A DNA stretch of 18,223 nucleotides from a virus (taxonomy: Duplodnaviria > Heunggongvirae > Uroviricota > Caudoviricetes): the IMG/VR virus record IMGVR_UViG_3300029875_000034, positions 1-18,223 of that record; one strand, given 5' to 3'. The notes under the pieces were generated by a model. The model did no database searches and was not told the origin of the DNA. It saw only the letters and a list, made by a program, of their open reading frames with translations. Shown in pieces: positions 1 to 16,487 of this stretch (the stretch's first letter is position 1; every line of letters starts with the position of its first letter). A program made the position numbers and the translations under genes.

Positions 1-69
<69 letters not shown>

Positions 70-72
70 TAT

Positions 73-147
<75 letters not shown>

Positions 148-153
148 GTTAGA

Positions 154-199
154 GTCTTTCAGTCTGCGATGATGGGAAATCCCGGAGTGACTGAAAGAC
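154..199 (+). repeat. Perfect 11-bp inverted repeat (GTCTTTCAGTC / GACTGAAAGAC) around a 24-nt loop, immediately downstream of tRNA-Gly
   Basis: Arms at 154-164 and 189-199 are exact reverse complements; the loop holds a GGG-AAAT-CCC mini-hairpin. No clean U-tract follows. Confidence 0.6.
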
Positions 200-206
200 G
201 TTTAAG

Positions 207-278
207 TTATGAATGATCGCTTTTTTTGCAAAATTGCTGTGCAGAAATACTAACCTTCGGGCAGGCGATCATTCATAA
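207..278 (+). repeat. Perfect 14-bp inverted repeat (TTATGAATGATCGC / GCGATCATTCATAA) separated by a 44-bp T/A-rich spacer
   Basis: Arms at 207-220 and 265-278 are exact reverse complements. Function unknown; could be a protein operator or an RNA stem. Confidence 0.6.
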
Positions 279-353
279 GCACTCTGCTTTTATTCCGATT
301 AACTGTGGGTGGTTTGTTGGATAGAGTGCTTCCCTTACTGTATATATCGTTTC

Positions 354-378
354 GCCCGCTTTTGCGGGTTTTTCTTTT
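354..378 (+). terminator. Intrinsic terminator upstream of the lysis cassette (possible tR'-equivalent late terminator)
   Basis: Stem CCCGC (355-359), loop TTTT, stem GCGGG (364-368), then T-rich tract TTTTTCTTTT (369-378); about 60 nt upstream of the holin start. Confidence 0.6.
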
Positions 379-438
379 CAAATCCCTTTCATTTCTCAGT
401 GTAAAACTACGCCATCCGTTATTTGCGGAGGTGAGGCT

Positions 439-654
439 ATGAAATCCATGGACAAAATTTCAACGGGCATTGCCTACGGCACCTCCGCAGGCAGTGCTGG
501 CTACTGGTTTTTACAGTGGCTTGATCAGGTCAGTCCGTCACAGTGGGCTGCGATTGGTGTACTGGGGAGTCTGGTTCTGGGCTTCCTGACTTATCTGACA
601 AATCTGTACTTCAAAATCAGAGAAGACAAGCGTAAGGCTGCACGGGGAGAGTAA
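439..654 (+). CDS. S: Class II pinholin, phage 21 S-type, with dual-start motif (Met1/Met4, antiholin/holin)
   Basis: 71 aa beginning MKSMDK; two hydrophobic helices ([19 protein letters not shown] and [18 protein letters not shown]) and a charged C-terminus ([13 protein letters not shown]). RBS GGAGGTGA at 427-434. Close to the S21 / DLP12 essD sequence as I recall it. Confidence 0.85.
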
Positions 655-658
655 TTCA

Positions 659-1009
659 ATGACTCAAAACTATGAACTGATTGTGAAAGGGATCCGCAAT
701 TTTGAGAATAAAGTTACGGTAACTTTAGCGTTACGGGACAAAAAACGCTTTGACGGCGAAATTTTTGACCTGGACATCTCGCTGGACCGTGTTGAAGGTG
801 CCGCGCTGGAGTTTTATGAGGCAGCAGCCAGAAGGAGCATCAGACAGGTCTTCCTGGATGTTGCTGCCGGGTTATGTGAAGGGGATGAGCAGTCGCCGGA
901 AAAGCGCCCCGTAATTTTAGAGGCGCAGAATGTGTGGATAACCTACAAAGGAAAGCTACCAGGAAGAATTACTGGTTCTCTGAAGACTCCTCCGGAATCA
1001 CAACCTTAA
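659..1009 (+). CDS. Hypothetical 116-aa protein inserted between holin and endolysin
   Basis: ORF with RBS GGAGAG 7 nt upstream of the ATG and 4 nt after the holin stop. No signal peptide or TM segment. It occupies the same position as ydfR-type (DUF1327) genes in some E. coli prophages, but I cannot confirm homology without a search. Confidence 0.55.
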   Translation: MTQNYELIVKGIRNFENKVTVTLALRDKKRFDGEIFDLDISLDRVEGAALEFYEAAARRSIRQVFLDVAAGLCEGDEQSPEKRPVILEAQNVWITYKGKLPGRITGSLKTPPESQP

Positions 1010-1072
1010 GTCACTGACCGGAACAGATAAACCTGTCCGTGGGCAGAAACCGATAAATCCTGATAAATATCC

Positions 1073-1606
1073 ATGAACGCAAAAATCAGATACGGCCTGT
1101 CGGCTGCCGTTCTGGCACTGATTGCCGTCGGTGCGCCCGCGCCTGATATTCTCGACCAGTTTCTGGATGAAAAAGAAGGTAACCACACAACGGCATACCG
1201 CGATGGTTCCGGCATCTGGACCATCTGTCGGGGTGCCACGATGGTGGATGGAAAACCCGTTTTTCCCGGTATGAAACTGTCGAAGGAAAAATGCGACCAG
1301 GTCAACGCCATTGAGCGTGATAAGGCGCTGGCATGGGTGGAGCGCAATATTAAAGTACCACTGACCGAACCACAAAAAGCGGGTATCGCGTCATTTTGTC
1401 CCTATAACATTGGCCCCGGTAAGTGTTTTCCATCGACGTTTTATAAGCGGCTGAATGCTGGTGATCGTAAGGGCGCATGCGAGGCGATTCGCTGGTGGAT
1501 AAAAGATGGTGGGCGCGATTGCCGCATACGTTCAAATAACTGCTATGGACAGGTTATTCGTCGTGACCAGGAAAGCGCATTAGCCTGTTGGGGAATAGAT
1601 CAGTGA
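1073..1606 (+). CDS. SAR endolysin (GH24 phage lysozyme with N-terminal signal-anchor-release domain)
   Basis: N-terminal Gly/Ala-rich weakly hydrophobic segment [16 protein letters not shown]; catalytic E-x8-D-x5-T triad in [16 protein letters not shown]; size 177 aa. The RBS is weak. Confidence 0.8.
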
Positions 1607-2070
1607 GCAGAGTCGCCGCGATTATTTATGCTCTGGTTATCTGCATCATCGTCTGCCTGTCGTGGGCGGTCAATCATTACCGTGATAACGCCATCACCTA
1701 CAAAGAACAGCGTGATAAAAAAGTCAGTGAGCTGAAGCAGCTGACCGCCACCATCGCTGACATGCAGCAGCGTCAGCGTGATGTTGCTGCGCTCGATGCA
1801 AAGTACTCGAGAGAATTAGCCAATGCGAAAGCTGAAAATGAAACTCTGCGCGCTGATGTTGCCGCTGGTCGTAAGCGCCTGCGGGTCAATGCCAGTTGCT
1901 CCGCAGCCGTGCGTGAAGCCACCGGACCCACCAGCGTGGATAATGCAACCAGCCCCAGACTGGCAGACACCGCTGAACGGGATTATTTCACCCTCAGAGA
2001 ACGGTTGATGACGATGCAGAAGCAACTGGAAGGGGCACAGCTATACATTCGTGAGCAATGTCTCAGATAA
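1603..2070 (+). CDS. Rz: Rz inner-membrane spanin (i-spanin)
   Basis: N-terminal [32 protein letters not shown] and a coiled-coil body, very close to lambda Rz as recalled. Likely start is GTG 1603 overlapping the endolysin stop (GTGA); the ORF track's TTG at 1588 is the alternative. Confidence 0.85.
1823..2008 (+). CDS. Rz1: Rz1 outer-membrane lipoprotein spanin (o-spanin), embedded in the +1 frame of Rz
   Basis: 61 aa with lipobox LVVSAC, proline-rich [32 protein letters not shown]; nearly the same as lambda Rz1 as recalled and fully embedded within Rz. Confidence 0.85.
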
Positions 2071-2124
2071 AAACCGGCCAAGGATAATCCGCTAAAGATT
2101 CGCCGGTGGCGAAAGAGAGCCAAG

Positions 2125-2154
2125 GTGTCAACCTACGCTATTACTTATGATAAT
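2125..2154 (+). promoter_or_regulatory. Candidate sigma70 promoter for the 88-aa ORF (-35 GTGTCA, 18-bp spacer, -10 GATAAT)
   Basis: Hexamers read by eye at 2125-2130 and 2149-2154; not validated. Confidence 0.25.
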
Positions 2155-2225
2155 GCAACAGACGAAGCGGGACATATTGGCGCATAACAAATCAGTGCAG
2201 GCTAACTGCAGGAAGAACTTAGGGC

Positions 2226-2492
2226 GTGAACGTAGAAAACCTAAGTAACGCACATTACATCTATAACGAGATGAAAGAGCTACAGCGACAGAAAGGTATA
2301 CTGGAAAGTGGTGCAGGGCTTGGTGTGACAATCCAGTCTGCCTATCAATATAGTGCTTTTCTTGAGGCCATACGCCCGCATGCAGTTGCTGAACTTAACA
2401 GCCGTATTGAGGAAAAGAAATCCGCGCTGGTTAATTTGGGTGCTTCCTTCTCTATATACGAGCATAATAAGGCGGGTTGGAAACCCGCCTAA
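2226..2492 (+). CDS. Hypothetical 88-aa protein in the AT-rich island (GTG start; alternative ATG at 2270)
   Basis: ORF with AGGAAG 10 nt upstream of GTG 2226. Convergent with the YfbU-like gene; its last codons overlap the shared hairpin. No recognisable family, so coding status is uncertain. Confidence 0.4.
   Translation: MNVENLSNAHYIYNEMKELQRQKGILESGAGLGVTIQSAYQYSAFLEAIRPHAVAELNSRIEEKKSALVNLGASFSIYEHNKAGWKPA
2471..2489. terminator. GC-rich hairpin between the convergent genes (GGCGGGT-TGGAA-ACCCGCC), likely terminator for the minus-strand gene
   Basis: 7-bp perfect stem with 5-nt loop; on the minus strand it is followed by TTATTATG. It sits 9 nt downstream of the minus-strand stop. Confidence 0.5.
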
Positions 2493-2497
2493 AGCAC

Positions 2498-3037
2498 TTA
2501 GAAACTGCGTGGAGCTGTGGAAAGAATGGATGCCAGTTCTTCCTTCGATAAATCCCAGCTTCGATTTACAGCGTCAATTTTCTTAAACTCATCAAGCATT
2601 GCGTTATAGAGATGTTCTGTACGTGAATGAGTATTGGCAATGGGCTGTTTCTGTTCGGGGAAGCGATCAATTTTCTGATATGCCTCAATGATACTGAAGT
2701 AATCGCATTCATTATTACCGTCGAAACCTGGGAGCTGAATTGCCCCATCATGTATTTTTAGATGATGGTCACGGACTAATTCTTTTTGCTCGTCATCACT
2801 AAGTTTCCTGAAAGCATTGGAAAGTCCGCGATACATATTCAAGACAGCAGTAACAAAATCACGATCTTCTTTACTTGGTTCATCAACATCCAAATGTGAA
2901 TATTCGGCCTTCATAACCCAACCATTACCAGATGACACAGCATATTTAACAAGCTGTGGATCAATATCAGTTTCGATACCTAGGTGGATGGCAATGTCAC
3001 ATAACAAAATGGTATTGATTTTATCTTTAATATCCAT
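2498..3037 (-). CDS. YfbU-family (UPF0304)-like protein, accessory (moron) gene on the opposite strand
   Basis: 179 aa. Segments NMYRGL, LPGFDGNNECDYFSIIEAYQ, THSRTEHLYNAMLDEF and C-terminal LSKEELASILS line up with my recollection of E. coli YfbU ([58 protein letters not shown]). Local GC about 35-42% versus about 50-55% in flanking genes, by eye. RBS GAGGG upstream on the minus strand. Confidence 0.55.
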   Translation of the reverse strand: MDIKDKINTILLCDIAIHLGIETDIDPQLVKYAVSSGNGWVMKAEYSHLDVDEPSKEDRDFVTAVLNMYRGLSNAFRKLSDDEQKELVRDHHLKIHDGAIQLPGFDGNNECDYFSIIEAYQKIDRFPEQKQPIANTHSRTEHLYNAMLDEFKKIDAVNRSWDLSKEELASILSTAPRSF

Positions 3038-3175
3038 GAGTTAACCCTCTGAAGTAAAAAGTAATATCTACACCCGTTAGCTCATGAAGTCTATTGATCT
3101 GGCTCATATCAGCGGCAAATCTATTTCATGGAGATACTCAATGCAGGTCACTTTTGATTTATATAAGGGCGAAAC

Positions 3176-3526
3176 ATGCCAGCACTAATCCCACGAGCCT
3201 GCCGTAAACGTGGATGTGCAGGTACAACCACAGACAGTTCTGGTTACTGCGATAAACATCGTGGCGAAGGATGGGTACAGCATCAGCGCGGACTGAGTCG
3301 CCACCAGCGTGGCTATGGCTCGAAATGGGATGCCATACGTGCGCGCATACTGAAGCGTGATAATGATCTGTGTCAGAACTGCCTGCGCAATGGGAGAGCC
3401 GTTGAAGCCAGAACTGTGGACCACATCATTCCGAAAGCTCATGGTGGCTCGGATGCAGACAGTAACCTGCAGAGTCTGTGCTGGCCCTGCCATAAAGCAA
3501 AAACAGCGCGCGAACGCATCAATTGA
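3176..3526 (+). CDS. HNH endonuclease (terminase-associated, HK97-type packaging module)
   Basis: HNH motif DHIIPKAHGG...NLQSLCWPCHKAKT with flanking Cys pairs (CRKRGC, CQNC, CWPCH); positioned immediately upstream of the small terminase. Confidence 0.85.
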   Translation: MPALIPRACRKRGCAGTTTDSSGYCDKHRGEGWVQHQRGLSRHQRGYGSKWDAIRARILKRDNDLCQNCLRNGRAVEARTVDHIIPKAHGGSDADSNLQSLCWPCHKAKTARERIN

Positions 3527-3673
3527 TAACAGTTCCCATCTGTAGGGGAGGGGTGGGTCAAATCCCTGCAGCCCTGGCTGCTCAGTACCGCCGCCTGACC
3601 CTTCCTCACATCGCCGCAGGTTCGAAAACTTTTTTTTGGAATGTGATTAAATGATTGATAGGTAAAACCGATT

Positions 3674-4156
3674 ATGTCAGGACCCCCGAAAACCCCGCCA
3701 CGCCTGCATTTGATACGAGGCAACCCCTCAAAGCGCCCCGTTAAAGACCCCAAAAAAACCGCTAAAAAGGATGAAAAAGGTCTCCCTAAAATTCCGCAAC
3801 ATTTAGGGGCACAGGGGAAGTACTGGTTCAGGCGAATGGCGGAAGAGTTGAATGCGGAAGGGATCATTTCTCAGCTCGATGCACGTGCGCTCGAGTTACT
3901 GGTGGAAGCCTACACCGAATACCGGCATCACTGCGAAATACTCGATGTTGAGGGTTATACCTACCGCACGGAAACGCAGAATGGCGATGTGCTGATCAAG
4001 GCACACCCGGCTGCTGCGATGAAGGCTGATGCCTGGAAGCGGATCCGGGCGATGCTTGCAGAGTTTGGTATGTCGCCGGCAAGCCGGGCGAAAGTAAATA
4101 CCGCCGGACCGGATGATGTTGATCCGCTGGCAGAGCTTTTAAAAGCGAGAGACTGA
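3674..4156 (+). CDS. Terminase small subunit (P27 family)
   Basis: 160 aa with basic N-terminus PPKTPPRLHLIRGNPSKRP and the typical P27-family body; stop overlaps the large-terminase ATG (TGATG). Confidence 0.8.
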   Translation: MSGPPKTPPRLHLIRGNPSKRPVKDPKKTAKKDEKGLPKIPQHLGAQGKYWFRRMAEELNAEGIISQLDARALELLVEAYTEYRHHCEILDVEGYTYRTETQNGDVLIKAHPAAAMKADAWKRIRAMLAEFGMSPASRAKVNTAGPDDVDPLAELLKARD

Positions 4157-5913
4157 TGGCAAAAGTGGCTGACGGGATCCGCTACGCCGAACGCGTTGTT
4201 GCAGGAGAAATTGTTGCTGGCGAATTTGTCCGTCTGGCTTGCCAGCGTTTTCTTGATGATCTGAAGTACGGCGAAGAGCGGGGGATTTATTTCAGTGAAC
4301 CCCGTGCGCAGCACATCCTGAATTTCTACAAATTTGTGCCTCATGTAAAAGGGGCGCTGGCAGGTCAGCCCATTGAACTGATGGACTGGCATGTTTTTAT
4401 CCTCATTAATATTTTTGGTTTTGTCATTCCGCTGGTGAATGAAGAGACCGGGGAAGTTGTCATGCGCAGCGATGGCAGCGGACGCCCGGTGATGGTGCGC
4501 CGTTTCCGGACAGCGTACAACGAAGTCGCCCGTAAAAACGCAAAATCAACCCTGTCATCGGGTATCGGCCTGTATATGACGGGGGCAGATGGTGAAGGCG
4601 GTGCTGAGGTGTATTCAGCCGCAACCACGCGTGACCAGGCCAGAATCGTGTTTGAAGACGCCAAAAATATGGTCAGAAAAGCCCGGTCGACACTCGGGCG
4701 GTTGTTTGATTTCAACAAGCTGGCGATTTACCAGGAGCAGAGCGCATCAAAATTTGAACCGCTTTCCTCGGATGCAAACAACCTGGACGGTCTGAACATC
4801 CACTGCGCCATTATTGATGAGCTGCATGCTCATAAAACCCGTGACGTGTGGGACGTTCTGGAAACGGCAACCGGTGCCCGTCTGCAGTCCCTTTTATTTG
4901 GCATCACCACGGCTGGCTTTAACAAGGAAGGGATTTGTTACGAGCAACGCGATTATGCCATCAAGGTATTGCGAGGCTATAACAGCGACGTGGAGGGCGC
5001 GGTAAAAGACGACTCCTACTTTGCAATTATTTACACGCTCGATGAGGGAGATGATCCGTTTGATGAAACGGTCTGGCAGAAAGCGAATCCCGGCCTGGGC
5101 ATCTGTAAACGCTGGGATGATCTGCGTCGTCTGGCGAAAAAGGCGAAGGAGCAGGTCTCGGCGCGGGTGAATTTTTTCACGAAACACATGAATGTGTGGG
5201 TCACTGCCGAATCTGCCTGGATGGACATGATTAAGTGGGAGAAGTGCGAATACATTGCTCCACAGCATGAGCTGAAAACATATCCCATGTGGGTCGGCGT
5301 CGACCTTGCTCATAAGATTGATATCTGTGCGGCGGCAAAACTCTGGCGAACCGATAACGGACATGTTCATGCCGATTTTAAATTCTGGCTTCCGGAAGGA
5401 CGGCTGGAACGATGCTCGCGGCAGCAGGCAGAACTTTACCGGAAGTGGGCAGAGATGGGAAAGCTCATCCTGACGGATGGTGATGTTATCGATCATGCTC
5501 AGATAAAAAGTGACTTACTGGAATGGATTGGCGGTGAAAACCTGAGGGAACTGGGATTTGACCCGTGGAGCGCAATGCAGTTCAGTCTGGCGCTGGCTGA
5601 AGAAGGGATACCGCTGGTGGAAGTTCCGCAGACGGTCCGCAATCTGTCAGAGGCTATGAAGGAAACGGAATCACTGGTTTATGCCGGACGTTTCCACCAC
5701 AGCAATCATCCGGTCATGAACTGGATGATGTCTAACGTTACGGTAAAACCGGACAAAAACGACAATATCTTCCCGAATAAATCCACGCCTGAAGCCAAAA
5801 TCGACGGCCCTGTTGCGATGTTTACAGCAATGAGCCGCATGCTGGTCAATGGCGGTGAACCGGAGCCGGATCTGTCTGAACATCTGGTCAGCGTGGGTAT
5901 CCGTTCGCTTTAA
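4156..5913 (+). CDS. Terminase large subunit (ATPase + nuclease)
   Basis: 585 aa; Walker-type ATPase region and C-terminal nuclease-like region; located between terS and portal. Confidence 0.9.
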
Positions 5914-5924
5914 CCGAGGGCATT

Positions 5925-6107
5925 ATGTTTCTGATAATTCTCACGCCACTGGTGGGCGTGCTGGGGGCGCTTTTGCTGTCGTATGGCACATGGCTGATTT
6001 ATCCCCCGGCAGGTTTTGTTGTTGCAGGGGCGCTGTGCCTGTTCTGGTCGTGGCTGGTTGCTCGTTATCTCGATCGCGGTCAGCGGGTCGCCTCCGGAGG
6101 TGAGTAA
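5925..6107 (+). CDS. Small hypothetical membrane protein (60 aa, two predicted TM helices)
   Basis: Hydrophobic segments [24 protein letters not shown] and [17 protein letters not shown]; RBS GAGGG at 5915-5919; stop overlaps the portal ATG (TAATG). Confidence 0.45.
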
Positions 6108-7348
6108 TGTTTTTCCAGGGGCTTTTTCAGCGCAAAAATAACACTCCCGTCACAACGCCCGGGATGCTTGCGGAAGAACTGGGATTGTCATACGACACCT
6201 ATACCGGAAAGCGGATCAGCAGTCAGCGGGCCATGCGGCTGACGGCGGTGTATTCCTGCGTCAGAGTGCTGGCGGAGTCTGTTGGTATGCTGCCCTGTAG
6301 CCTCTACAAAATCACCGGCACCCTTAAAACACGGGCGGTGGATGAACGACTGCATAAGCTAATTTCGGCAAAACCCAATGGCTACATGACACCGCAGGAA
6401 TTCTGGGAGCTGGTTATCGTCTGCCTGTGTCTGCGGGGTAATTTTTACGCTTACAAGGTGAAGGCGCTGGGAGAAGTGGTGGAGCTTCTTCCGATAGATC
6501 CGGGTTGTGTGGAGCCGAAGCTGAACTGTCAGTGGCAGCCGGTTTATCAGGTGACGTTTCCGGATGGTTCCGTGGATGTGCTGACCCAGGATGAAATCTG
6601 GCATGTGCGTACTCTGACGCTGGACGGACTGGTCGGGCTGAATCCCATTGCGTATGCGCGTGAGGCCATTTCACTGGCAGCGGCAACTGAGGAGCACGGC
6701 GCCAGGCTGTTTGGTAACGGCGCTGTGACATCCGGTGTGTTGCGTACGGAACAAAAGCTCACGCCGGATGCTTATGAGCGCATGAAGAGGGATTTTGAGG
6801 AGCGTCATCTTGGGCTGGGTAATGCGCACCGTCCGATGATTCTGGAAATGGGGCTGGACTGGAAGCCGGTGGCACTGAATGCCGAGGACAGTCAGTTCCT
6901 GGAAACCCGCAAGTTTCAGTTGGAAGAAATCTGTCGTCTTTTCCGCGTGCCACTGCATATGGTGCAGAACACTGACCGCGCCACCTTCAACAATATTGAA
7001 GAACTGGGGCTTGGCTTCATTAACTATTCCCTTGTGCCGTATCTGACCCGTATTGAACAGCGGATCAATACAGGGCTGGTGAGGGAGAGTAAAAAGGGAA
7101 AATTTTACGCCAAATTTAATGCCGGGGCGTTGTTGCGTGGTGACATGAAATCCCGCTTTGAAGCGTATGCCACGGGGATTAACTGGGGGATTTATTCCCC
7201 TAATGACTGCCGTGATCTGGAAGATATGAACCCTCGCCCGGGCGGTGATGTGTATCTGACACCGATGAACATGACCACCAGTCCCTCTGCTGGCGATGAC
7301 AACGGTAAGAAAAAGGAGAGTGGAGATGCAGACAAAACAGCGTCTTGA
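6107..7348 (+). CDS. Portal protein (HK97 family)
   Basis: 413 aa; RBS GGAGGTGA upstream; typical HK97-family portal length and position after terL. Confidence 0.85.
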   Translation: MFFQGLFQRKNNTPVTTPGMLAEELGLSYDTYTGKRISSQRAMRLTAVYSCVRVLAESVGMLPCSLYKITGTLKTRAVDERLHKLISAKPNGYMTPQEFWELVIVCLCLRGNFYAYKVKALGEVVELLPIDPGCVEPKLNCQWQPVYQVTFPDGSVDVLTQDEIWHVRTLTLDGLVGLNPIAYAREAISLAAATEEHGARLFGNGAVTSGVLRTEQKLTPDAYERMKRDFEERHLGLGNAHRPMILEMGLDWKPVALNAEDSQFLETRKFQLEEICRLFRVPLHMVQNTDRATFNNIEELGLGFINYSLVPYLTRIEQRINTGLVRESKKGKFYAKFNAGALLRGDMKSRFEAYATGINWGIYSPNDCRDLEDMNPRPGGDVYLTPMNMTTSPSAGDDNGKKKESGDADKTAS

Positions 7349-7976
7349 TATACCGCTGAACCTGAAATCCGTCAGTGATTCCGGGGAATTTGAAGGTTAC
7401 GGTTCTGTTTTTGGTGTTAAGGACAGCCACGATGATGTGGTGGTCCCCGGAGCCTTTACCACAACACTCCAGAAATGGAGCGAAAAAAAGGCGCTGCCTG
7501 CGTTGCTCTGGCAGCACCGTATGGATGAGCCTATCGGTGTGTACACCGAAATGAAAGAAGATGATGTCGGGCTTTATGTCAGGGGGCGATTACTCGTTGA
7601 TGATGATCCCCTGGCAAAACGTGCACATGCCCATATGAAGGCCGGTTCTTTAACCGGCCTTTCTATTGGCTACATCCTGAAAGACTGGGAGTACGACCGG
7701 GAAAAAGGGGTATTCCTGCTGAAAGAGATCGACCTGTGGGAGGTCAGTCTGGTGACGTTCCCTTCCAATGATGAGGCACGCATCAGCGATGTGAAAAATG
7801 CGCTGGCGCGTGGGGAGATCCCTGATCAGAAAATTATTGAGCGGGTCCTGCGCGATGTTGGACTTTCGCGAACCCAGGCCAAAGCATTCATGGCCGGGGG
7901 ATATGGCGCTTTATCCCTGCGTGATGCTGAGGATGTGGATGCCGCACTGAATGCACTGAAAAATCTTACTTTTTAA
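7326..7976 (+). CDS. Prohead maturation protease (HK97 gp4 family, S78)
   Basis: Start ATG 7326 preferred (RBS AAGGAGAGTGGAG at 7312-7324) over the ORF-track start 7296 in the same frame; motif GYGSVFGVKDSHDDVVVPGAF; sits between portal and capsid. Confidence 0.8.
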   Translation: MQTKQRLDIPLNLKSVSDSGEFEGYGSVFGVKDSHDDVVVPGAFTTTLQKWSEKKALPALLWQHRMDEPIGVYTEMKEDDVGLYVRGRLLVDDDPLAKRAHAHMKAGSLTGLSIGYILKDWEYDREKGVFLLKEIDLWEVSLVTFPSNDEARISDVKNALARGEIPDQKIIERVLRDVGLSRTQAKAFMAGGYGALSLRDAEDVDAALNALKNLTF

Positions 7977-7989
7977 TCAGGAGTAAATA

Positions 7990-9216
7990 ATGGCTGTTGA
8001 TATTAAAGACGTGGAACAGGTCGCGCAGGATTTGCAGCAGAAGTTTGACGATTTTAAGGCAAAAAACGACAAACGTATCGACGCGATCGAGCAGGAAAAG
8101 GGAAAACTTGCCGGTGAAGTGGAAACTCTCAACGAAAAACTGACTGAGCTGGAAAATCTCAAAAACGATCTTGAGGCTGAACTGGCTGAAGTCAAGCGTC
8201 CGGCAGGTGGCACGCAAAATAAAGTTGCCAGTGAGCATAAAGACGCGTTTATCGGATTTATGCGCAAGGGGCGTGAAGACGGTCTGCGTGAGCTTGAGCG
8301 TAAGGCACTGCAGGTGGGCAATGATGAAGATGGTGGTTATGCCATTCCGGAAGAACTGGATCGCACCATTCTGACGCTGCTGAAAGATGAGGTGGTGATG
8401 CGCCAGGAAGCCACTGTGATCACCCTCGGTGGCTCGGATTATAAAAAACTGGTGAATCTGGGCGGCACTAAGTCCGGATGGGTGGGGGAAACGGATACGC
8501 GTCCGGAAACCGCCACCTCAAAACTGGGGCTGATTGAACCCTTTATGGGGGAAATCTACGGCAACCCGCAGGCTACCCAGAAAATGCTCGATGATGCTTT
8601 TTTCAATGTGGAAGACTGGATCAACAGTGAGCTGGCGCTGGAATTTGCCGAACAGGAAGAAATTGCCTTTACCAGTGGCGACGGCAGCAAAAAACCAAAA
8701 GGGTTCCTTGCTTATGAGTCCACCGATGAAGATGACAAGACCCGTGCGTTTGGCAAACTTCAGCACATCGCTTCCGGCGCGGCTTCCGGCGTGACCGCTG
8801 ATGCGATCATTAAACTGATTTACACCCTGCGCAAGGCGCACCGCAGCGGCGCGAAGTTCATGATGAACAACAGCAGCCTGTTTGCCATTCGTCTGTTGAA
8901 GGATAACGACGGAAATTATCTGTGGCGTCCGGGCATTGAGCTGGGGCAGCCTTCTTCTCTGGCAGGGTATGGCATCGTTGAGAATGAGCAGATGCCGGAT
9001 ATTGCCGCCGATGCAAAAGCCATTGCGTTTGGTAACTTCAAACGCGGCTATACCATCGTTGATCGCATCGGTACCCGTATCCTGCGTGACCCGTACACCA
9101 ACAAACCGTTTGTGGGCTTTTATACCACCAAACGAACTGGCGGTATGCTGGTGGATTCTCAGGCGATTAAGCTGATGAAGATCGGCGCTGCGGTCCGCCA
9201 GAAAGCCGCTGCGTAA
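7990..9216 (+). CDS. Major capsid protein (HK97 fold) with N-terminal coiled-coil delta/scaffold domain
   Basis: 408 aa; N-terminal about 100 residues coiled-coil (QDLQQKFDDFKAKNDKRIDAIEQEKGKLAGEVETLNEKLTELENLKNDLEAELAEV); RBS AGGAG upstream. Confidence 0.85.
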   Translation: MAVDIKDVEQVAQDLQQKFDDFKAKNDKRIDAIEQEKGKLAGEVETLNEKLTELENLKNDLEAELAEVKRPAGGTQNKVASEHKDAFIGFMRKGREDGLRELERKALQVGNDEDGGYAIPEELDRTILTLLKDEVVMRQEATVITLGGSDYKKLVNLGGTKSGWVGETDTRPETATSKLGLIEPFMGEIYGNPQATQKMLDDAFFNVEDWINSELALEFAEQEEIAFTSGDGSKKPKGFLAYESTDEDDKTRAFGKLQHIASGAASGVTADAIIKLIYTLRKAHRSGAKFMMNNSSLFAIRLLKDNDGNYLWRPGIELGQPSSLAGYGIVENEQMPDIAADAKAIAFGNFKRGYTIVDRIGTRILRDPYTNKPFVGFYTTKRTGGMLVDSQAIKLMKIGAAVRQKAAA

Positions 9217-9229
9217 TGCAGTTTTTTAT

Positions 9230-9249
9230 GCCCGCACAGTGTTGCGGGC
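9230..9249 (+). other. Perfect 7-bp hairpin (GCCCGCA-CAGTGT-TGCGGGC) right after the capsid gene; possible attenuator or RNA-stability element
   Basis: Exact reverse-complement arms read from sequence; T6 precedes the stem and no U-tract follows, so it is not a classical terminator. Confidence 0.4.
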
Positions 9250-9260
9250 AGGAGTTTCTG

Positions 9261-9578
9261 ATGGCAGCAATAGTGGAAAAACTCAGGGCGCAGTGCCGTA
9301 TTGATACAGATGATGCAACTGATGATGAGTTACTGATGCTGTATTTCCGGGCTGCCTGCCGCAAGGCAGAAAATTTTATCAACCGTAAGCTTTATGAGGA
9401 GACGGTGCCGGAGGGGGATCCAGAAGGGGTGCTTATAACTGATGATGTTTTGCTGGCGCTTATGTTGCTGGTCGGGCACTGGTACGAAAACCGGGAAAAT
9501 TCCTCAGATGTCAGCAAGGCACCAATCCCGTTTGGTTTTTCTTCTCTGCTGGAGCCTTATCGTTTTATTCCTGTGTAG
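9261..9578 (+). CDS. Head-tail connector protein (phage gp6-like)
   Basis: Start ATG 9261 preferred (RBS AGGAG at 9250-9254); the ORF-track start 9216 would overlap the hairpin. Position after the capsid gene. Confidence 0.6.
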   Translation: MAAIVEKLRAQCRIDTDDATDDELLMLYFRAACRKAENFINRKLYEETVPEGDPEGVLITDDVLLALMLLVGHWYENRENSSDVSKAPIPFGFSSLLEPYRFIPV

Positions 9579-9586
9579 GAGGAAGC

Positions 9587-9925
9587 ATGCAGGCGGGCAG
9601 ATTACGTGATCGCGTAATTATTCTGAATGTCACCACCGCCCGCTCTCCGTCAGGGCATCCGGTGGAGACGGTGACGGAGGGAGCTACCGTATGGGCAGAA
9701 GTTAAGGGTATCAGCGGGAGGGAGATAATCTCAGGCGGAGCAGAAACCGCTCAGGCTACGGTCAGAGTCTGGATGAGATTCCGACGCGATGTGACAGCGA
9801 CTTCTCGTCTGAAAGTGCTGACCGGTGCATTTAAAGGGGCCATTCTGGGTATAGAAGGTCCACCAATACCGGATGCACGCGCTACCCGGCTTGAAATACT
9901 CTGCAGCCTGAAGGGGAATGTGTGA
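9587..9925 (+). CDS. Head-tail adaptor / head closure protein
   Basis: 112 aa; RBS GGAGGAAG upstream; size and position typical of HK97-like modules. Confidence 0.6.
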   Translation: MQAGRLRDRVIILNVTTARSPSGHPVETVTEGATVWAEVKGISGREIISGGAETAQATVRVWMRFRRDVTATSRLKVLTGAFKGAILGIEGPPIPDARATRLEILCSLKGNV

Positions 9926-10371
9926 TGGATTTCAGTCTTGATTTTTCCGGCCTGGCGGATATTGCACGGGATCTGGAGACGCTCAGCAGGGCAGAAAACA
10001 ATAAGGTTCTGCGCGATGCCACCCGTGCCGGTGCTGAAGTTATGCGGGATGCAGTTGTTGAACGTGCGCCGGAGCGAACCGGGAAACTGAAGAAAAATGT
10101 GGTTGTTCTCACGCAGCGTTCAAAGCGTCGGGGAGAAATTATCTCGGGTGTCCACATTCGCGGACGGAACCTGCGAACCGGAAACAGTGATAACAGCATG
10201 AAAGCCAGCGATCCCCGAAATGCGTTTTACTGGCGCTTTGTGGAGCTGGGAACGATAAACATGCCCGCGCATCCATTCATTCGCCCGGCTTTCGATACGA
10301 CAGAGGAGCTGGCGGCGCAGGTTGCCATACAGCGAATGAATCAGGCTATTGATGAGGTCTTAAGTAAATGA
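9925..10371 (+). CDS. HK97 gp10-family neck/tail-component protein
   Basis: About 148 aa; C-terminal motif AHPFIRPAF typical of the gp10 family; start overlaps the upstream stop (TGATG). Confidence 0.6.
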   Translation: MDFSLDFSGLADIARDLETLSRAENNKVLRDATRAGAEVMRDAVVERAPERTGKLKKNVVVLTQRSKRRGEIISGVHIRGRNLRTGNSDNSMKASDPRNAFYWRFVELGTINMPAHPFIRPAFDTTEELAAQVAIQRMNQAIDEVLSK

Positions 10372-10712
10372 GGGAGGCCACACTGTATTCCCTGCTGTCT
10401 CAGCTGGCCGGAGGACAGGTATATCCTTATGTGGTCCCGCTGACGGAGGGAAAGCCTGCGGTATCTCCGCCGTGGCTGGTGTTTTCTGTGGTGTCTGACA
10501 CGGCGTCTGATGTGCTTGATGGTCAGGCTGAATCCAGAATTGTCGTGCAGATCGATGTCTGGGCAACAGTACCTGATGACGCAGATGATATTCGTGAGCA
10601 GGCGCTTGATGCAGTAAGGAAACTGGCACCCTCCGTTATTTCTAAAACGCAGGGGTATGATCCTGACTCCCGTCTGAGCAGAGCCACGCTTGAATTTCAG
10701 GTAATAGCCTGA
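10368..10712 (+). CDS. Tail completion / tail terminator-like protein (DUF3168-like)
   Basis: 114 aa; ATGA start-stop overlap with the upstream gene; last gene before the tail tube. Confidence 0.5.
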   Translation: MREATLYSLLSQLAGGQVYPYVVPLTEGKPAVSPPWLVFSVVSDTASDVLDGQAESRIVVQIDVWATVPDDADDIREQALDAVRKLAPSVISKTQGYDPDSRLSRATLEFQVIA

Positions 10713-10733
10713 GGTCGTTAATGATTTTACCCA

Positions 10734-10759
10734 CCCGCCGCTGGCGGGGTTTTTTTTTT
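10734..10759 (+). terminator. Intrinsic terminator upstream of the major tail gene
   Basis: Stem CCCGCC (10734-10739) / GGCGGG (10743-10748) followed by T9 (10751-10759); RBS AGGAG and ATG 10772 follow directly. Confidence 0.65.
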
Positions 10760-10771
10760 CAGGAGACGAGT

Positions 10772-11476
10772 ATGTCCTCTAATTTTGAGCGTTCGCAACT
10801 GACGAAAATTATGATTTCGTCTGCACCGGTAACAGCAGAAACCCTGGATTCTGCCAGCTATCTTGGCCTGAGCTGTACAATCAAAGAGGTGCAGTTTACC
10901 GCAGGACAAAAGCAGGATATTGATGTCACCACGCTGTGTTCTGTTGAGCAGGAAAATATTAACGGTCTTGGTGCCGCGTCAGAGATTTCCATGTCAGGCA
11001 ACTTTTACCTCAATGCTGCCCAGAACGCGTTGCGCAGTGCCTATGACAATGACACCACGTATGGCTTTAAAGTTATTTTTCCGTCAGGAAACGGATTTAC
11101 CTTTATGGCAGAGGTGCGTCAGCATACCTGGTCTGCAGGAACCAATGGTGTTGTGGCTGCAACGTTTTCCCTGCGCCTGAAAGGTAAACCTGTGCTGACG
11201 ACAGAGCCGCTGAAAGTGAAGGTCGATTTAAACAGCACGCTGCAGGTTTCTGCCGGAGCGAAACTCGAAATGGTGGTTGAGGCTGCCGGTGGTGTGCCGC
11301 CTTATTCTTATGTCTGGAAGAAAGGTAGTTCTCCTGTTTCCGGACAGACGGCGGCAACGTTCAGTAAGGCATCAGCAGCATCTGGTGATGCCGGTGCGTA
11401 TACCTGCGAGATTTCTGATTCAGCAAGCCCGGTTAACAAAGTGACCTCCACTTCCTGCACTGTAACCGTCAGTTAA
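10772..11476 (+). CDS. Major tail tube protein with C-terminal Ig-like domain
   Basis: Start ATG 10772 (RBS AGGAG at 10761-10765); C-terminal region with GAYTCEISDS...TVTVS resembles an Ig-like domain with a Y-x-C motif. Confidence 0.75.
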   Translation: MSSNFERSQLTKIMISSAPVTAETLDSASYLGLSCTIKEVQFTAGQKQDIDVTTLCSVEQENINGLGAASEISMSGNFYLNAAQNALRSAYDNDTTYGFKVIFPSGNGFTFMAEVRQHTWSAGTNGVVAATFSLRLKGKPVLTTEPLKVKVDLNSTLQVSAGAKLEMVVEAAGGVPPYSYVWKKGSSPVSGQTAATFSKASAASGDAGAYTCEISDSASPVNKVTSTSCTVTVS

Positions 11477-11490
11477 TGAGGATGGATGTG

Positions 11491-11862
11491 ATGACTAAAA
11501 ATATCCGTAATCTGGCACTGGCAACGATGTCGGGGTTTCGCCATAAAACCGTTGATGTGCCTGAATGGGAGGGAGCAACGGTTGTATTACGGGAACCTTC
11601 TGCAGAAGCCTGGTTGCGCTGGCAGGAGATCGTTAAAGCAAAAGATGATGAGACACCGTTATCCGTTGCGGAGCGCGCCCGCCGAAATCTGGAAGCGGAT
11701 GTTGAACTGTTCATCGATGTTCTGTGTGATACCGGACTGCAACCTGTATTTTCAGAGGATGATCGTGAACAGGTGATTGCCGTGTATGGCCCGGTGCATG
11801 CGCGGCTTCTTCGGCAGTCTCTGGAACTGATCAGTGATGCCGGAGAGGTTAAAAAAAAGTAG
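11491..11862 (+). CDS. Tail assembly chaperone (gpG-like)
   Basis: Start ATG 11491 preferred (RBS GAGGA at 11479-11483); ends ...EVKKK with the slippery site in its last codons. Confidence 0.7.
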   Translation: MTKNIRNLALATMSGFRHKTVDVPEWEGATVVLREPSAEAWLRWQEIVKAKDDETPLSVAERARRNLEADVELFIDVLCDTGLQPVFSEDDREQVIAVYGPVHARLLRQSLELISDAGEVKKK

Positions 11863-12164
11863 CGCTTCCGGGGATGCGTTTTCTGATGATGCTGGCGCTC
11901 AGGATGGGGCGCACATTGTCAGAGTTACGCCGGGAAATGTCCGCATCAGAAATCATGATGTGGGCAGAATTTGACAGGTTCAGCCCGCTGGGAGACGAAC
12001 GGGCTGATATCCGGGCTGCCCAGATTGTTTCAGCTGTTTACGGTGCGCAGGGGGTCAAAGTGCCACTGAATGATGCGCTTCTTCAGTGGGAGAAGGAGCA
12101 GACAGAAGGCGCTTCAGATCCATTTGCCGGACTGGAAAACGCGCTTTTAATAGTGTCTCAGTGA
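11491..12164 (+). CDS. Tail assembly chaperone G-T fusion product made by -1 frameshift at 11853-11859
   Basis: The downstream ORF (11874..12164) is in the -1 frame relative to G and has no credible independent RBS; the conserved G/GT arrangement of long-tailed phages. Confidence 0.65.
11853..11859 (+). other. Programmed -1 ribosomal frameshift slippery heptamer A AAA AAG
   Basis: Heptamer in X XXY YYZ register at the end of the G-like ORF; the -1 frame is open from here through 12164. Confidence 0.7.
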
Positions 12165-12172
12165 GTCAACAT

Positions 12173-12194
12173 AACCGCTTCGGCGGTTTTTTTT
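12173..12194 (+). terminator. Intrinsic terminator-like hairpin between G-T and the tape measure gene
   Basis: Stem AACCGC (12173-12178), loop TTCG, stem GCGGTT, then a T8 run (12187-12194). Confidence 0.55.
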
Positions 12195-12204
12195 CGTCCG
12201 GAGA

Positions 12205-15200
12205 ATGAGTGTGGCGACATTACGTGAACTGATTATTAAAATCTCGGCAAACTCCCGGTCATTCCAGTCAGAGATCTCCCGGGCTTCGCGTATGGGGCAG
12301 GATTACTACCGCACCATGCAGAACGGAGGCCAACAGTTTGCTGCTGCCTCCCGTGAAATGCGGCGTGCACTGGCAGAAGTGACGGATCAGATAAATACAG
12401 CTAAATCTTCGGCACTGAATATGGCGGGGGCATTTGCCGGGGCTTTTGCTACCGGTCATCTTATTTCTCTCGCCGATGAGTGGAATTCAGTAAATGCCCG
12501 TCTGAAGCAGGCCTCACAGTCCAGTGATGATTTTCAGGCATCACAGCGTGAATTAATGGCGATCAGCCAGAGAACGGGGACGGCGTTTTCTGATAACGCC
12601 AGCCTTTTTGCCCGTTCTGCAGCTTCCATGCGGGAGTATGGTTACAGTTCTGAGGAGGTACTGAAAGTCACCGAGGCGATCTCCACGGGCCTGAAATTAT
12701 CCGGTGCCAGTACAGCAGAAGCCAGTTCGGTGATCACGCAGTTCAGTCAGGCACTGGCGCAGGGAGTGCTGCGCGGTGAAGAGTTTAACTCGGTGAATGA
12801 GAACGGCGATCGTGTTATTCGTGCGCTGGCTGCGGGAATGGGGGTTGCCCGTAAGGATCTGAAGGCCATGGCGGATAACGGAAAACTGACCGCCGATAAG
12901 GTTGTTCCTGCACTGATTAGTCAGCTTGGGGCATTACGTGATGAATATGCGGCAATGCCTGATACGGTTTCATCCTCTGCAACCAAAGTTGAAAACGCCT
13001 TTATGGCCTGGGTTGGTGGTGCGAATGAGGCAAGCGGAGTGACGAAGACGCTCTCCGGTGTGCTGAATGGTATTGCAGGCAATATTGACACTGTGGCAAC
13101 CGCTGCCGGTGCTCTGGTTGCCGTCGGGGTAGCCCGATATTTTGGCAATATGGCGTCTTCTGCTGGATCTGCAACTGCCGGATTAATTACTGCAGCCAGA
13201 AACGAAGTGGCTCTTGCGGAAGCGCAGCTCCGGGGGACACAGATAGCAACAGCCAGGGCGCGTGCGGCGGTTTATCGTGCGCAACAGGCGGTTGTTGCTG
13301 CTCGCGGTACCGAAAGGCAGGCAGCCGCAGAAGCGAAACTGGCTGCTGCCCAGGCATCACTTACCCGTAATATTGCGGCCAGAACAGCAGCACAGACAAC
13401 GCTGAATACTGTCACGTCAGTGGGAAGTCGTCTGTTAAGTGGAGCACTGGGACTGGTTGGTGGGGTGCCGGGGCTTGTCATGCTGGGGGCCGCGGCCTGG
13501 TACACGATGTATCAGAATCAGGAGCAGGCCAGAGAATCTGCACGCCAGTATGCCGCAACAATCGACGAAATTCGCCAGAAAACGTCGGCAATGTCGCTTC
13601 CTGAAGCGTCAGATAATGAGGAAAAGACGCGGCAGGCACTTGATGAGCAAAACAGGTTAATTGACGAGCAGAAAAGTAAGATTAAATCCTTACAGGAAAA
13701 AATTGCTGGCTATCAGTATGTGCTGGCAAACCCGGGCTGGACAACCGATAACGGTTTTATGATTAACCACATGACGTCGGTAAAAACTGTCACAGAAGGG
13801 CTTGCAGAAGCAACAAATCAACTGGCAGTTGAACAGTCTCGCCTCACTCAAATGCAGGGCAAAGCGCAATCCATTCAGGATGTGCTTGCCGGGCTGGAGG
13901 AGCGACGGGTGGCGTTGATCCGTCAACAGGCGGCGGAACAAAATAAAGCGTATCAGTCCCTGTTGATCATGAATGGGCAGCATACCGAGTTTAATCGCCT
14001 TCTCGGGCTTGGTAATGAATTACTTCAGCAGCGACAGGGGCTGGTGAATGTACCGTTACGGCTACCACAGGCAACTCTGGATGATAAACAGCAGACCGCA
14101 CTGAATAACAGCAAGCGCGAACTGGCTCTGTCCCGCCTGAAGGGGGAAGCGCGTGAGCGTGCCCGACTGGGCTATGCTGCGGATGATCTCGGCTTTGTGG
14201 GGGAGGCGTATCAGACAGCCAGACAGAATTATATCAATAACTCACTGGATGCCTGGCGAAATAACCAGGCAAATAAACCCAAAACGCATAAAAAGACCGA
14301 AGCGGAAAAAACAGAAGATATTTATAAACGGCTGATTAAACAGCAAAAAGAACAGATAGCACTGGCAGGGCAGAATACTGAACTGGCTAAGATGAAATAT
14401 CAGGTCAGTCAGGGCGAATTATCAACCCTGTCAGAAGCGCAGAAAAAAACGCTTTTGCAGAATGCAGCACTCATCGACCAGAAAAAGATTCGTGAGCAGC
14501 TTGCCGCGTATGAAAGCAGTCTGGCGGACAGTAATGCCAGTGCCCGGGCATCTGACGACGCGCAGTTGCTGGGATATGGTGAAGGCTCACGGATGCGTGA
14601 ACGACTCCAGGAAATGTGGAGTATCCGGCAGGCGTTTGAGCAGAAAAATAACGAGCTACTGAGACAGTATCAGGCCGGAGAAATTGAAGAAGCCCTGTGG
14701 AAACAGGAAAAATCGCTGAATGAAAAATATCTGGAAGAGCGTCTCAGCGATCAGCAGGATTATTATGCAAAGGCTGATGCTTTACGCAGTGACTGGAATG
14801 CCGGCCTCCAGGAGGGACTGACCAACTGGGCAGACAGTGCCACCGATTATGCTTCGCAGGCGGCAGATGCTGTCGTTTCCACTATGGACGGGCTGGTATC
14901 AAATATTTCCGATGCACTGGCCGGAAATGTTGTGGACTGGCGAAACTGGGGGAGTTCAATTCTCCAGGAAGTTTCAAAAATTCTGATGAACGCTGCCATC
15001 GTTAACGGGCTGAAGTCACTTTCCAAAAGCATGTCCGGTGCCGGAGGATGGCTTGGTACGGTCGGCGACTGGCTTTCCGGTGCAGTGGCAAACGCAAAAG
15101 GTGGTGTTTATACATCTGCAAATCTGAGTGCTTACAGTAACACCATTGTGGATACCCCGACGTATTTTGCTTTTGCGAAAGGTGCCGGGCTGATGGGCGA

Positions 15201-15450
15201 GGCCGGGCCTGAAGCTATCATGCCACTGACCCGGGCAGCGGACGGCTCTCTTGGAGTCAGAGCCATTGGCAATGTGAATGGTGGCGGGGGATTTGTTTAT
15301 TCTCCCGTGTATCACATCAGTATTCAGAATAAAGGGAGCAATGGCGAGATAGATACGCAGTCAGCCAGGGGGCTGGTGGATCTGATCGACAGCAGGGTTG
15401 TGTCAATTATGCAGTCATCACGTCGGGACGGAGGATTATACAGTGCCTGA
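12205..15450 (+). CDS. Tail tape measure protein (lambda gpH family)
   Basis: 1081 aa, Ala/Gln-rich coiled-coil with hydrophobic segments; the C-terminal region resembles the lambda gpH C-terminus as recalled. Confidence 0.85.
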   Translation: MSVATLRELIIKISANSRSFQSEISRASRMGQDYYRTMQNGGQQFAAASREMRRALAEVTDQINTAKSSALNMAGAFAGAFATGHLISLADEWNSVNARLKQASQSSDDFQASQRELMAISQRTGTAFSDNASLFARSAASMREYGYSSEEVLKVTEAISTGLKLSGASTAEASSVITQFSQALAQGVLRGEEFNSVNENGDRVIRALAAGMGVARKDLKAMADNGKLTADKVVPALISQLGALRDEYAAMPDTVSSSATKVENAFMAWVGGANEASGVTKTLSGVLNGIAGNIDTVATAAGALVAVGVARYFGNMASSAGSATAGLITAARNEVALAEAQLRGTQIATARARAAVYRAQQAVVAARGTERQAAAEAKLAAAQASLTRNIAARTAAQTTLNTVTSVGSRLLSGALGLVGGVPGLVMLGAAAWYTMYQNQEQARESARQYAATIDEIRQKTSAMSLPEASDNEEKTRQALDEQNRLIDEQKSKIKSLQEKIAGYQYVLANPGWTTDNGFMINHMTSVKTVTEGLAEATNQLAVEQSRLTQMQGKAQSIQDVLAGLEERRVALIRQQAAEQNKAYQSLLIMNGQHTEFNRLLGLGNELLQQRQGLVNVPLRLPQATLDDKQQTALNNSKRELALSRLKGEARERARLGYAADDLGFVGEAYQTARQNYINNSLDAWRNNQANKPKTHKKTEAEKTEDIYKRLIKQQKEQIALAGQNTELAKMKYQVSQGELSTLSEAQKKTLLQNAALIDQKKIREQLAAYESSLADSNASARASDDAQLLGYGEGSRMRERLQEMWSIRQAFEQKNNELLRQYQAGEIEEALWKQEKSLNEKYLEERLSDQQDYYAKADALRSDWNAGLQEGLTNWADSATDYASQAADAVVSTMDGLVSNISDALAGNVVDWRNWGSSILQEVSKILMNAAIVNGLKSLSKSMSGAGGWLGTVGDWLSGAVANAKGGVYTSANLSAYSNTIVDTPTYFAFAKGAGLMGEAGPEAIMPLTRAADGSLGVRAIGNVNGGGGFVYSPVYHISIQNKGSNGEIDTQSARGLVDLIDSRVVSIMQSSRRDGGLYSA

Positions 15451-15784
15451 GCCTGAAGTTTTTAACTGGATCCCCCGCGAGGGGATGGAGACGACACGAA
15501 AGCCATCTGTTATTACGGTAAAGTTCGGTGACGGATATGAACAGCGGCGGGCTGGTGGTCTGAATGCGGATCTGAAAACGTTTAAACCGGTGTTTCGTGT
15601 CACAGATGAATATTCCCGTGCTGCGCTGGACAGTTTTTTATCCCGTCATGCCGGGATACGTGCTTTTTTGTGGCGTCCGCCAAAACACAACAGAACCGTC
15701 CGGGTTGTCTGCAGGGAGTGGAGTATTTCGGATAATGCCATGTATACCGATTTTAACTGTACCTTTGAAGAGGTCACTCACTGA
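15443..15784 (+). CDS. M: Minor tail protein M
   Basis: VKFGDGYEQRRAGGLNADLKTF matches lambda gpM VRFGDGYSQRAPAGLNANLKTY as recalled; start GTG 15443 with RBS GGAGGA at 15430-15435, overlapping the tape-measure stop. Confidence 0.8.
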   Translation: MPEPEVFNWIPREGMETTRKPSVITVKFGDGYEQRRAGGLNADLKTFKPVFRVTDEYSRAALDSFLSRHAGIRAFLWRPPKHNRTVRVVCREWSISDNAMYTDFNCTFEEVTH

Positions 15785-16482: not shown

Positions 16483-16487
16483 ATGTA

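Follow-up and report, generated by a model that had tools for sequence, protein, structure and literature searches.

A YmfR-family gene for a predicted membrane hairpin is locked to the portal gene in a tailed-phage head module

Introduction

The e14 prophage of Escherichia coli K-12 contains a small gene, ymfR (b1150), that is flanked by the remnants of a terminase gene (ymfN) and a portal gene (beeE). Homologues of its product have entered public databases under several names: the RefSeq name for the family is "IPR020297 domain-containing protein YmfR," the copy in phage phiP27 is a "putative integral membrane protein," and those in ST64B (Sb3) and SfI/SfII/SfIV are annotated as membrane protein. 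In phage T4, assembly of the portal initiator gp20 takes place on the inner membrane, depends on gp40, and involves contact with YidC (PMC9958956). Here we describe a ymfR homologue, a 60-codon open reading frame (ORF) for a predicted two-helix membrane hairpin, in an 18,223-nucleotide (nt) stretch of a tailed-phage genome (Caudoviricetes; IMG/VR virus record IMGVR_UViG_3300029875_000034, positions 1 to 18,223). The whole stretch is hereafter called the window. The ORF lies between the genes for the large terminase subunit (terL) and the portal protein, and we compare this locus with its relatives and with the systems that it most resembles.

Results

The 60-codon gene is a further copy of the already catalogued YmfR/PHROG 502 family and is not new. 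Its 60-amino-acid (aa) product matched PHROG 502 "membrane protein" over its full length with an E value of 1.6e-25 (residues 1-54 aligned to positions 3-56 of the 58 in the profile), and no Pfam or NCBIfam model was found for it (Pfam at E up to 1). Compared with K-12 YmfR, 48 of the 60 residues (80%) were identical in a gapless alignment (E 8e-27). The two proteins share their length, the two-helix hydropathy, the IYPPAG turn, and the terminase-portal position, with the same stop/start overlap in e14 as in the window. Apart from the C-terminal tail, which reads RTQSSVGGGK in YmfR, there was no difference of substance between the proteins, whereas the terL and portal genes that flank ymfR in e14 have decayed.

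The family is large. Phage copies within PHROG 502 were 76-85% identical to the window protein, and tblastn detected homologues in 43 phage records, including phiP27, ST64B, SfI/SfII/SfIV, PY54, phiKO2 (Gp3), Klebsiella prophages, Azospirillum phage Cd, and Marinobacter phage AS1. A large protein database held 143 clusters at 90% identity, from thousands of Enterobacterales contigs, and a profile search of 1.84 billion representative proteins yielded 490 clusters at 50% identity. The best 150 of these 490 clusters were 26-122 aa in length, except for one protein of 1523 aa, whose match rests on short repeated stretches and looks spurious. The core consensus of the distant members was approximately S-Y-G-A-W-L-I-Y-x-P-A-G-[FY]-I-V-x-G, and its turn portion, Y-x-P-A-G-[FY]-I, was retained in distant relatives from several bacterial phyla.

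Conservation across related phages had been set in advance, in a first-pass annotation of the window, as one check on this ORF. We assembled a close set of the window and 85 related loci (86 copies). Alignment-based scans of viral contigs yielded far more loci than a single-sequence scan of genome contigs, which gave four. The small ORF was intact in 86/86 copies, always with an ATG start and a GAGG-type ribosome-binding site, and its stop codon overlapped the portal start (TAATG, TAGTG, or TGATG) in 83 of the 86. The ratio of nonsynonymous to synonymous changes (dN/dS), computed pairwise over 51 distinct nucleotide versions, was 0.40 in the ORF's own frame versus 0.90 and 1.46 in the other two frames. 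By region, it was 0.013 in the turn (residues 25-31), 0.21 in helix 2 (residues 32-48), and 0.72 in the tail (residues 49-60). Since the ORF is neither absent nor disrupted in close relatives, the gene is real; it is conserved, and purifying selection acts on it only in its own frame. A chance ORF is thus ruled out by the family match, the intact copies, and the selection pattern, and a coding role for the overlapping frame at 5849-6103 (84 aa) is ruled out by the out-of-frame dN/dS values.

The hairpin gene is genetically locked to the portal gene, not to terL. At each of the 85 close loci, the small ORF follows the end of terL after about 14 nt, and its stop is where the portal gene starts. 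Two classes of terL were present among these loci, one about 99% and the other about 36% identical to the window terL. In both, the small protein covaries with the portal, and the hairpin is kept across the swap to the 36%-identity terL. Over 80 loci, the identity of the small protein correlated with portal identity at r 0.81 versus r 0.44 for terL identity. Besides, phages with a 97-99% identical terL but a 28%-identical portal have a 53-aa hairpin of their own, of phrog_7105, in front of the portal gene.

The same arrangement extends to remote relatives. With a profile built from distant family members, 80 additional viral contigs were found, 78 of them with enough downstream DNA. In every one of these 78 loci, an ORF of 410-466 aa (where complete) started -24 to +19 nt from the hairpin stop, with an overlap of 0 or -3 nt in 72. 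The 43 distinct downstream proteins were all PF04860 portals, some of them mutually only 27-33% identical; the gene upstream of the hairpin was terL in 28 of 33. In a large subset of head modules with a PF04860 portal, the hairpin gene is thus an ancient and fixed constituent. The first-pass annotation had held that a membrane protein is not standard between terL and the portal, a view that the 85 close and 78 distant loci with an intact gene do not support.

Two further observations concern the borders of the module. Within the 3' end of the window terL, at about 5856-5895, there is a mosaic junction: one set of E. coli phages matches the window at 96-97% DNA identity up to about 5856 and then has a different portal module, and the DNA that resembles the ST64B-type head module starts at about 5895, just 5' of the small ORF. 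In two marine viral contigs, which are among the loci where terL is not the immediate upstream gene, an extra gene of 187-226 aa with no Pfam match stands between terL and the hairpin gene (L101:2933-3496 and L112:2764-3444), and the hairpin still overlaps the portal start despite the inserted gene.

The features of the locus are listed in Table 1. The 60-aa ORF that the first-pass annotation placed between terL and the portal gene is present there, as strongly hydrophobic as claimed, and both flanks were confirmed by Pfam. The closest solved structure to the window portal was the HK97 portal (8cez).

Table 1. Features of the hairpin locus and of the lysis cassette in the window
Feature	Coordinates	Strand	Basis and remarks
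Holin gene	439-654		Lysis cassette, ~4 kb upstream of the hairpin gene
Endolysin gene	1073-1606		Lysis cassette
Rz spanin gene	1588-2070		Lysis cassette
terL, large terminase subunit, 5' neighbor	4156..5913	+	PF03354 TerL_ATPase and PF20441 TerL_nuclease; phrog_9, E 2e-191
Shine-Dalgarno sequence GAGGG of the 60-codon ORF	5916..5920	+	4 nt 5' of the ATG; from sequence
YmfR-family gene	5925..6107	+	60 codons; phrog_502 match, 80% identity to K-12 YmfR
Predicted transmembrane helix 1, residues 2-24	5928..5996	+	Hydropathy, AlphaFold2; glycine-rich, conserved G11, G14, and G21
Tight turn IYPPAG, residues 25-30	5997..6014	+	Best-conserved part of the protein; predicted to face the periplasm
Predicted transmembrane helix 2, residues 31-46	6015..6062	+	Hydropathy, AlphaFold2 helix 27-57, dN/dS 0.21
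Charged C-terminal tail, residues 47-60	6063..6104	+	Predicted to be cytoplasmic; weak constraint
Portal Shine-Dalgarno sequence GGAGG	6096..6100	+	Within the final codons of the 60-codon ORF; from sequence
TAATG stop/start overlap	6105..6109	+	Small-ORF TAA 6105-6107 and portal ATG 6107-6109, one base in common
Portal gene, 3' partner	6107..7348	+	PF04860 (HK97 family), E 1.4e-108; N-terminus MFFQGLF

At the 5' junction, 11 nt separate the terL stop codon (5911-5913) from the ATG of the small ORF, and the GAGG core upstream of this ATG is kept in related loci. The translational coupling proposed in the first-pass annotation stands for the portal, given the stop/start overlap and the portal ribosome-binding site inside the ORF. 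The C-terminal GG[ED/K] is conserved in the small proteins because the portal ribosome-binding site encodes those codons. Fusion of the hairpin to the portal via a -1 frameshift was ruled out, as a TGA at 6101-6103 closes the portal frame just 5' of the ATG. Folding energies of the RNA at both junctions did not differ from those of shuffled controls (z 0.05 and 0.52).

Such coupling raises the question of whether the ORF serves mainly as a leader, its translation delivering ribosomes to the portal start and setting the portal dose; membrane insertion of the nascent hairpin might also pull the late mRNA to the membrane, and the peptide as such would do little. A leader would accord with the portal Shine-Dalgarno sequence lying inside the ORF, with the stop/start overlap found in nearly all loci, and with a C-terminal GG[ED] that is set by the portal ribosome-binding site even in the unrelated DUF1056 proteins described below. 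A mere leader, however, does not need a peptide constrained as strongly as this one is in its turn, whose consensus extends across several phyla. Besides, no RNA structure above shuffled controls hides the portal start, and in HK97 the translation of the portal is coupled directly to terL, without a leader. We therefore consider a pure leader function improbable.

The first-pass annotation had further suggested that the ORF may be a moron, that is, an independently acquired and expressed accessory gene, such as one for an exclusion peptide, that benefits the lysogen. The locus does not bear this out. The 11 nt after the terL stop leave no room for a promoter, and the sole promoter-like match (9 of 12) has its -10 box inside the small ORF; no terminator flanks the gene, and the counts of promoter-like and terminator-like matches were not above those of shuffled controls. 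The G+C content of the ORF is ordinary (0.556 versus about 0.51-0.58 in terL and portal). A moron should also be sporadic, whereas this gene is found in every relative and is replaced only along with the whole portal module. PHROGs does file phrog_502 under "moron, auxiliary metabolic gene and host takeover," but this label is a generic bin for "membrane protein" with no tested function. That ymfR is kept intact in the decayed e14 prophage of K-12 would fit a gene useful to the lysogen; under SOS-inducing conditions, however, it is co-induced with the e14 lytic genes. In K-12 treated with an SOS-inducing compound, ymfR RNA rose by log2 4.5 together with ymfL, ymfM, ymfQ, and tfaP (PMC10012262). 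Since ymfR rises with other e14 lytic genes, it behaves as part of the lytic operon. A moron thus appears very improbable, the least probable of the alternatives that we weighed.

Elsewhere in the window, the region between the lysis cassette and an HNH endonuclease gene (2071-3175) contains two ORFs (2226-2492 on the plus strand and 2498-3037 on the minus strand). The opposite-strand ORF, of 179 aa, is a "hypothetical protein" in the 97%-identical phage vB_EcoS-689R5 and is, by its orientation, a better moron candidate than the hairpin.

The protein has the features of a membrane hairpin. Its grand average of hydropathicity (GRAVY), 1.09, was the highest among the 108 window ORFs of at least 50 aa. 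Residues 1-46 carry no charge, all charges being in the tail (R47, D50, R51, R54, and E60), and the hydropathy profile showed two hydrophobic stretches with IYPPAG between them. AlphaFold2, run with a 21-sequence alignment, predicted helices at residues 2-25 and 27-57 (mean predicted local distance difference test score, 79). These results agree, at the level of prediction, with the small protein with two transmembrane (TM) segments described in the first-pass annotation. Residues P27, P28, and G30 of the turn were invariant, and Y26 and A29 were invariant in one of two alignments.

By the positive-inside rule, the charged tail should be cytoplasmic, and in a hairpin the N-terminus would therefore be cytoplasmic too, with the turn at the outer face. 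We infer that the hairpin is embedded in the cytoplasmic membrane, its two ends lying in the cytoplasm and its tight W-x-I-Y-P-P-A-G turn at the outer face; the arginine-rich N-terminal extensions of distant relatives are consistent with this N-in/C-in topology. Foldseek found no match to the AlphaFold2 model in the PDB, and a sequence profile searched against solved structures gave only nonsignificant matches to glycophorin A TM peptides (E 0.6-0.9). Three of the best 150 family proteins, P0262 (122 aa), P0283 (102 aa), and P0347 (108 aa), are tandem double hairpins with two YGAW...PPAGY units per chain. These natural tandem hairpins suggest that the functional unit is at least a dimer.

A protein of this kind might act late in infection on a membrane target other than the portal, for example, in superinfection DNA exclusion, on a host inner-membrane protein, on the membrane potential, or in lysis timing, and its position beside the portal gene would then reflect shared expression only. 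The pattern of constraint favors such a role, in that the outward turn and the membrane helices are best conserved, not the cytoplasmic tail; moreover, the predicted topology (two TM segments, N-in/C-in, ~60 aa, charged C-terminal tail) is that of class II holins and some exclusion proteins, and many PF04860 phages build heads without the hairpin. Searches for such relatives were negative: no holin family was among the Pfam, PHROG, and NCBIfam hits at E up to 1, and none of the PADLOC defense models matched the window ORF (0 families at E up to 1). A complete lysis cassette of holin, endolysin, and spanin genes is already present elsewhere in the window (439-2070). A target other than the portal also leaves unexplained why unrelated hairpins occupy the same overlapping position across three bacterial phyla and why the gene stays with the portal when genes are inserted upstream. 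Nothing in our analysis specifically supports exclusion or another membrane-acting role, and we regard a nonportal target as possible but rather unlikely.

Within the lysis cassette, a gene of 116 aa lies between the holin and endolysin genes (659-1009; phrog_406/phrog_2091) and has a YdfR-family label in a related phage.

The hairpin could also be a component of the virion, packaged at the portal vertex and ejected into the cytoplasmic membrane of the recipient, where it would aid DNA entry. It is encoded in the structural module beside the portal gene, and the family is found across tail types and hosts, e.g., in HK97-like myo- and siphoviruses and in the telomere phages PY54 and phiKO2. The uncharged residues 1-46, however, would partition into the membrane of the producer cell. 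No relative is present in any solved virion or portal structure, and we found no virion proteomics in the literature reporting the hairpin. We judge this quite improbable, slightly more so than a leader function.

The family has members in phages that infect Proteobacteria and Actinobacteria, and in phages of Firmicutes its place is taken by unrelated hairpins. We sampled 14 diverse phages with a PF04860 portal, and in 5 of them the portal gene was immediately preceded by a short ORF for a hydrophobic hairpin. The hairpin of Mycobacterium phage NihilNomen matched phrog_502 (E 3e-17), as did that of Burkholderia phage vB_RY3 described below, and the other hairpin-bearing phages in the sample were Vibrio phage K322, Pseudomonas phage D14C (phrog_4810), and Enterococcus phage SHEF2 (phrog_8943). 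In the BK5-T portal clade of Firmicutes phages, 72 of 80 loci had a nonhomologous hairpin gene, of DUF1056 or another kind, immediately before the portal gene.

Some public records misname the hairpin ORF or leave it uncalled. In Burkholderia phage vB_RY3 (PQ789826), an unannotated ORF of 61 aa (L336:693-878) fills the 187-nt gap between terL and the portal gene and matches phrog_502 (E 1.9e-14); as this case shows, the gene is easily missed by annotation pipelines. Wrong labels occur in ON470580, ON470603, ON470584, PQ793804, and BK061477: homologues of the ORF are called "head-tail joining protein W," and the 54-aa hairpin of Pseudomonas phage D14C is labeled "Phage portal protein." Both labels are positional misannotations. 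Phage lambda gpW is a soluble protein that has only its small size and its position between the large terminase and portal genes in common with the window ORF, and identity with gpW was ruled out, as no gpW Pfam hit was obtained at E up to 1 and the window product has a high GRAVY score and an uncharged stretch over residues 1-46. A 1764-bp record, OR844959.1 ("Enterococcus phage Efm 3-10"), contains a 78%-identical hairpin copy and a 74%-identical portal start and is probably a mislabeled or contaminating fragment.

Discussion

Among the functions considered, we favor one in head assembly: the hairpin may be an accessory membrane factor that helps PF04860-type portals or proheads to assemble, a function like that of T4 gp40. 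We give this a probability of roughly 40%. It is favored because genes of interacting phage proteins, as a general rule, stay adjacent, and the membrane-bound T4 portal initiator offers a precedent. The hairpin gene would be transcribed within the late (head) operon and translated just before the portal gene, and since the portal ribosome-binding site and start overlap the last codons of the hairpin gene, both proteins would be made at the same time and place. The hairpin would then self-associate, probably via its glycine-rich helices, and newly made portal subunits would be received or chaperoned at the site that it provides within the membrane. It would improve or localize assembly without being universally required, since HK97 and many other PF04860 phages have no hairpin.

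The point of contact may be the short hydrophobic N-terminus of the portal. Partnered portals nearly always have short, hydrophobic, Phe-containing starts, such as MFFQGLF, MxGLFGS, MFLPSMF, and VSFFSRIF (the N-terminus of the window portal is encoded at 6107-6130). At least one Phe was present in portal residues 2-9 in 46 of 49 hairpin-partnered portals versus 4 of 10 unpartnered ones, a correlation that is confounded by phylogeny and includes only these 10 negatives.

That confounding is one of several points that weigh against a role in portal assembly. No upstream hairpin gene was found in 9 of the 14 diverse PF04860 phages, in HK97, or in any of the 80 loci of the HK97 portal clade; since HK97 and many PF04860 phages are without it, the hairpin is no general requirement of PF04860 portals. 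The tail exposed to the cytoplasm is tiny and poorly conserved, and the best-conserved part of the hairpin is on the opposite side of the membrane, an odd arrangement for a tether that binds portals. Among the best 150 of the 490 clusters, there were no fusions of the hairpin to portal or terL. Furthermore, the tight linkage to the portal gene could stem from translational coupling alone, we found no functional study of any YmfR-family member or DUF1056 in the literature, and to our knowledge membrane-associated prohead assembly is known only for T4-type phages.

For this window, little is at stake, as it adds one more copy of PHROG 502, K-12 YmfR, and the RefSeq "membrane protein." The question is one for the family, whose genes have stayed beside the portal gene in phages of at least two bacterial phyla, with unrelated hairpins in a third. 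A broader proposal, which we put forward more tentatively than a role for this hairpin in portal assembly and consider somewhat doubtful, is that hairpins directly upstream of portal genes (YmfR/PHROG 502 with its relatives, and analogues such as DUF1056) form a widespread, overlooked class of head-assembly proteins that oligomerize in the membrane and capture the hydrophobic N-termini of nascent PF04860 portals. Prohead initiation in many HK97-like phages would then be membrane associated, as in T4. If the hairpin is indeed a membrane-bound portal assembly factor, the textbook picture of HK97-like heads assembling free in the cytoplasm would change, and thousands of "hypothetical protein" entries would receive a function. 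With the e14 copy in K-12 and with inducible lysogens of E. coli, the function of the family is easy to test.

Among known systems, class II holins, pinholins (S21), HK97 gp15, and T4 Imm are proteins of comparable size with an N-in/C-in two-helix topology. The hairpin differs from all of these in having no holin or defense profile match and in being encoded outside the lysis cassette. HK97 gene 15 is a free-standing moron, which the window hairpin gene is not. T4 gp40, a phage membrane protein that aids formation of the portal ring at the cytoplasmic membrane, serves here as a functional model only, and we do not imply that the hairpin belongs to its family. The T4 portal belongs to a different portal family than PF04860, and gp40 is not translationally coupled to gene 20.

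Closer in genetic context are the phrog_7105/phrog_4810 hairpins, examples of which are encoded by a 53-aa ORF in Escherichia phage vB_EcoS-689R5 and a 54-aa ORF in Pseudomonas phage vB_PaeS-D14C. They resemble the window hairpin in size, in their two hydrophobic helices, in the overlap with the portal start, and in a weak but significant profile similarity (phrog_7105 matches phrog_502 at E 1.7e-6), whereas they are without the YPPAG turn and their portals are only ~28% identical to that of the window. The DUF1056 proteins (PF06341), such as the 69-aa hairpin encoded by ORF4 of Lactococcus phage BK5-T, occupy the same place. These hydrophobic two-helix proteins of 63-72 aa are encoded between terL and a PF04860 portal gene, overlapping both, and end in ..KGGD, encoded by the portal ribosome-binding site just as the GG[DE] of the YmfR family is; they differ from that family in their N-terminal amphipathic extension and their Firmicutes hosts. 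Homology between YmfR and DUF1056 was undetectable (hhalign probability, 0.6%; no Pfam hit for the window ORF), and DUF1056 is therefore a positional and topological analogue only.

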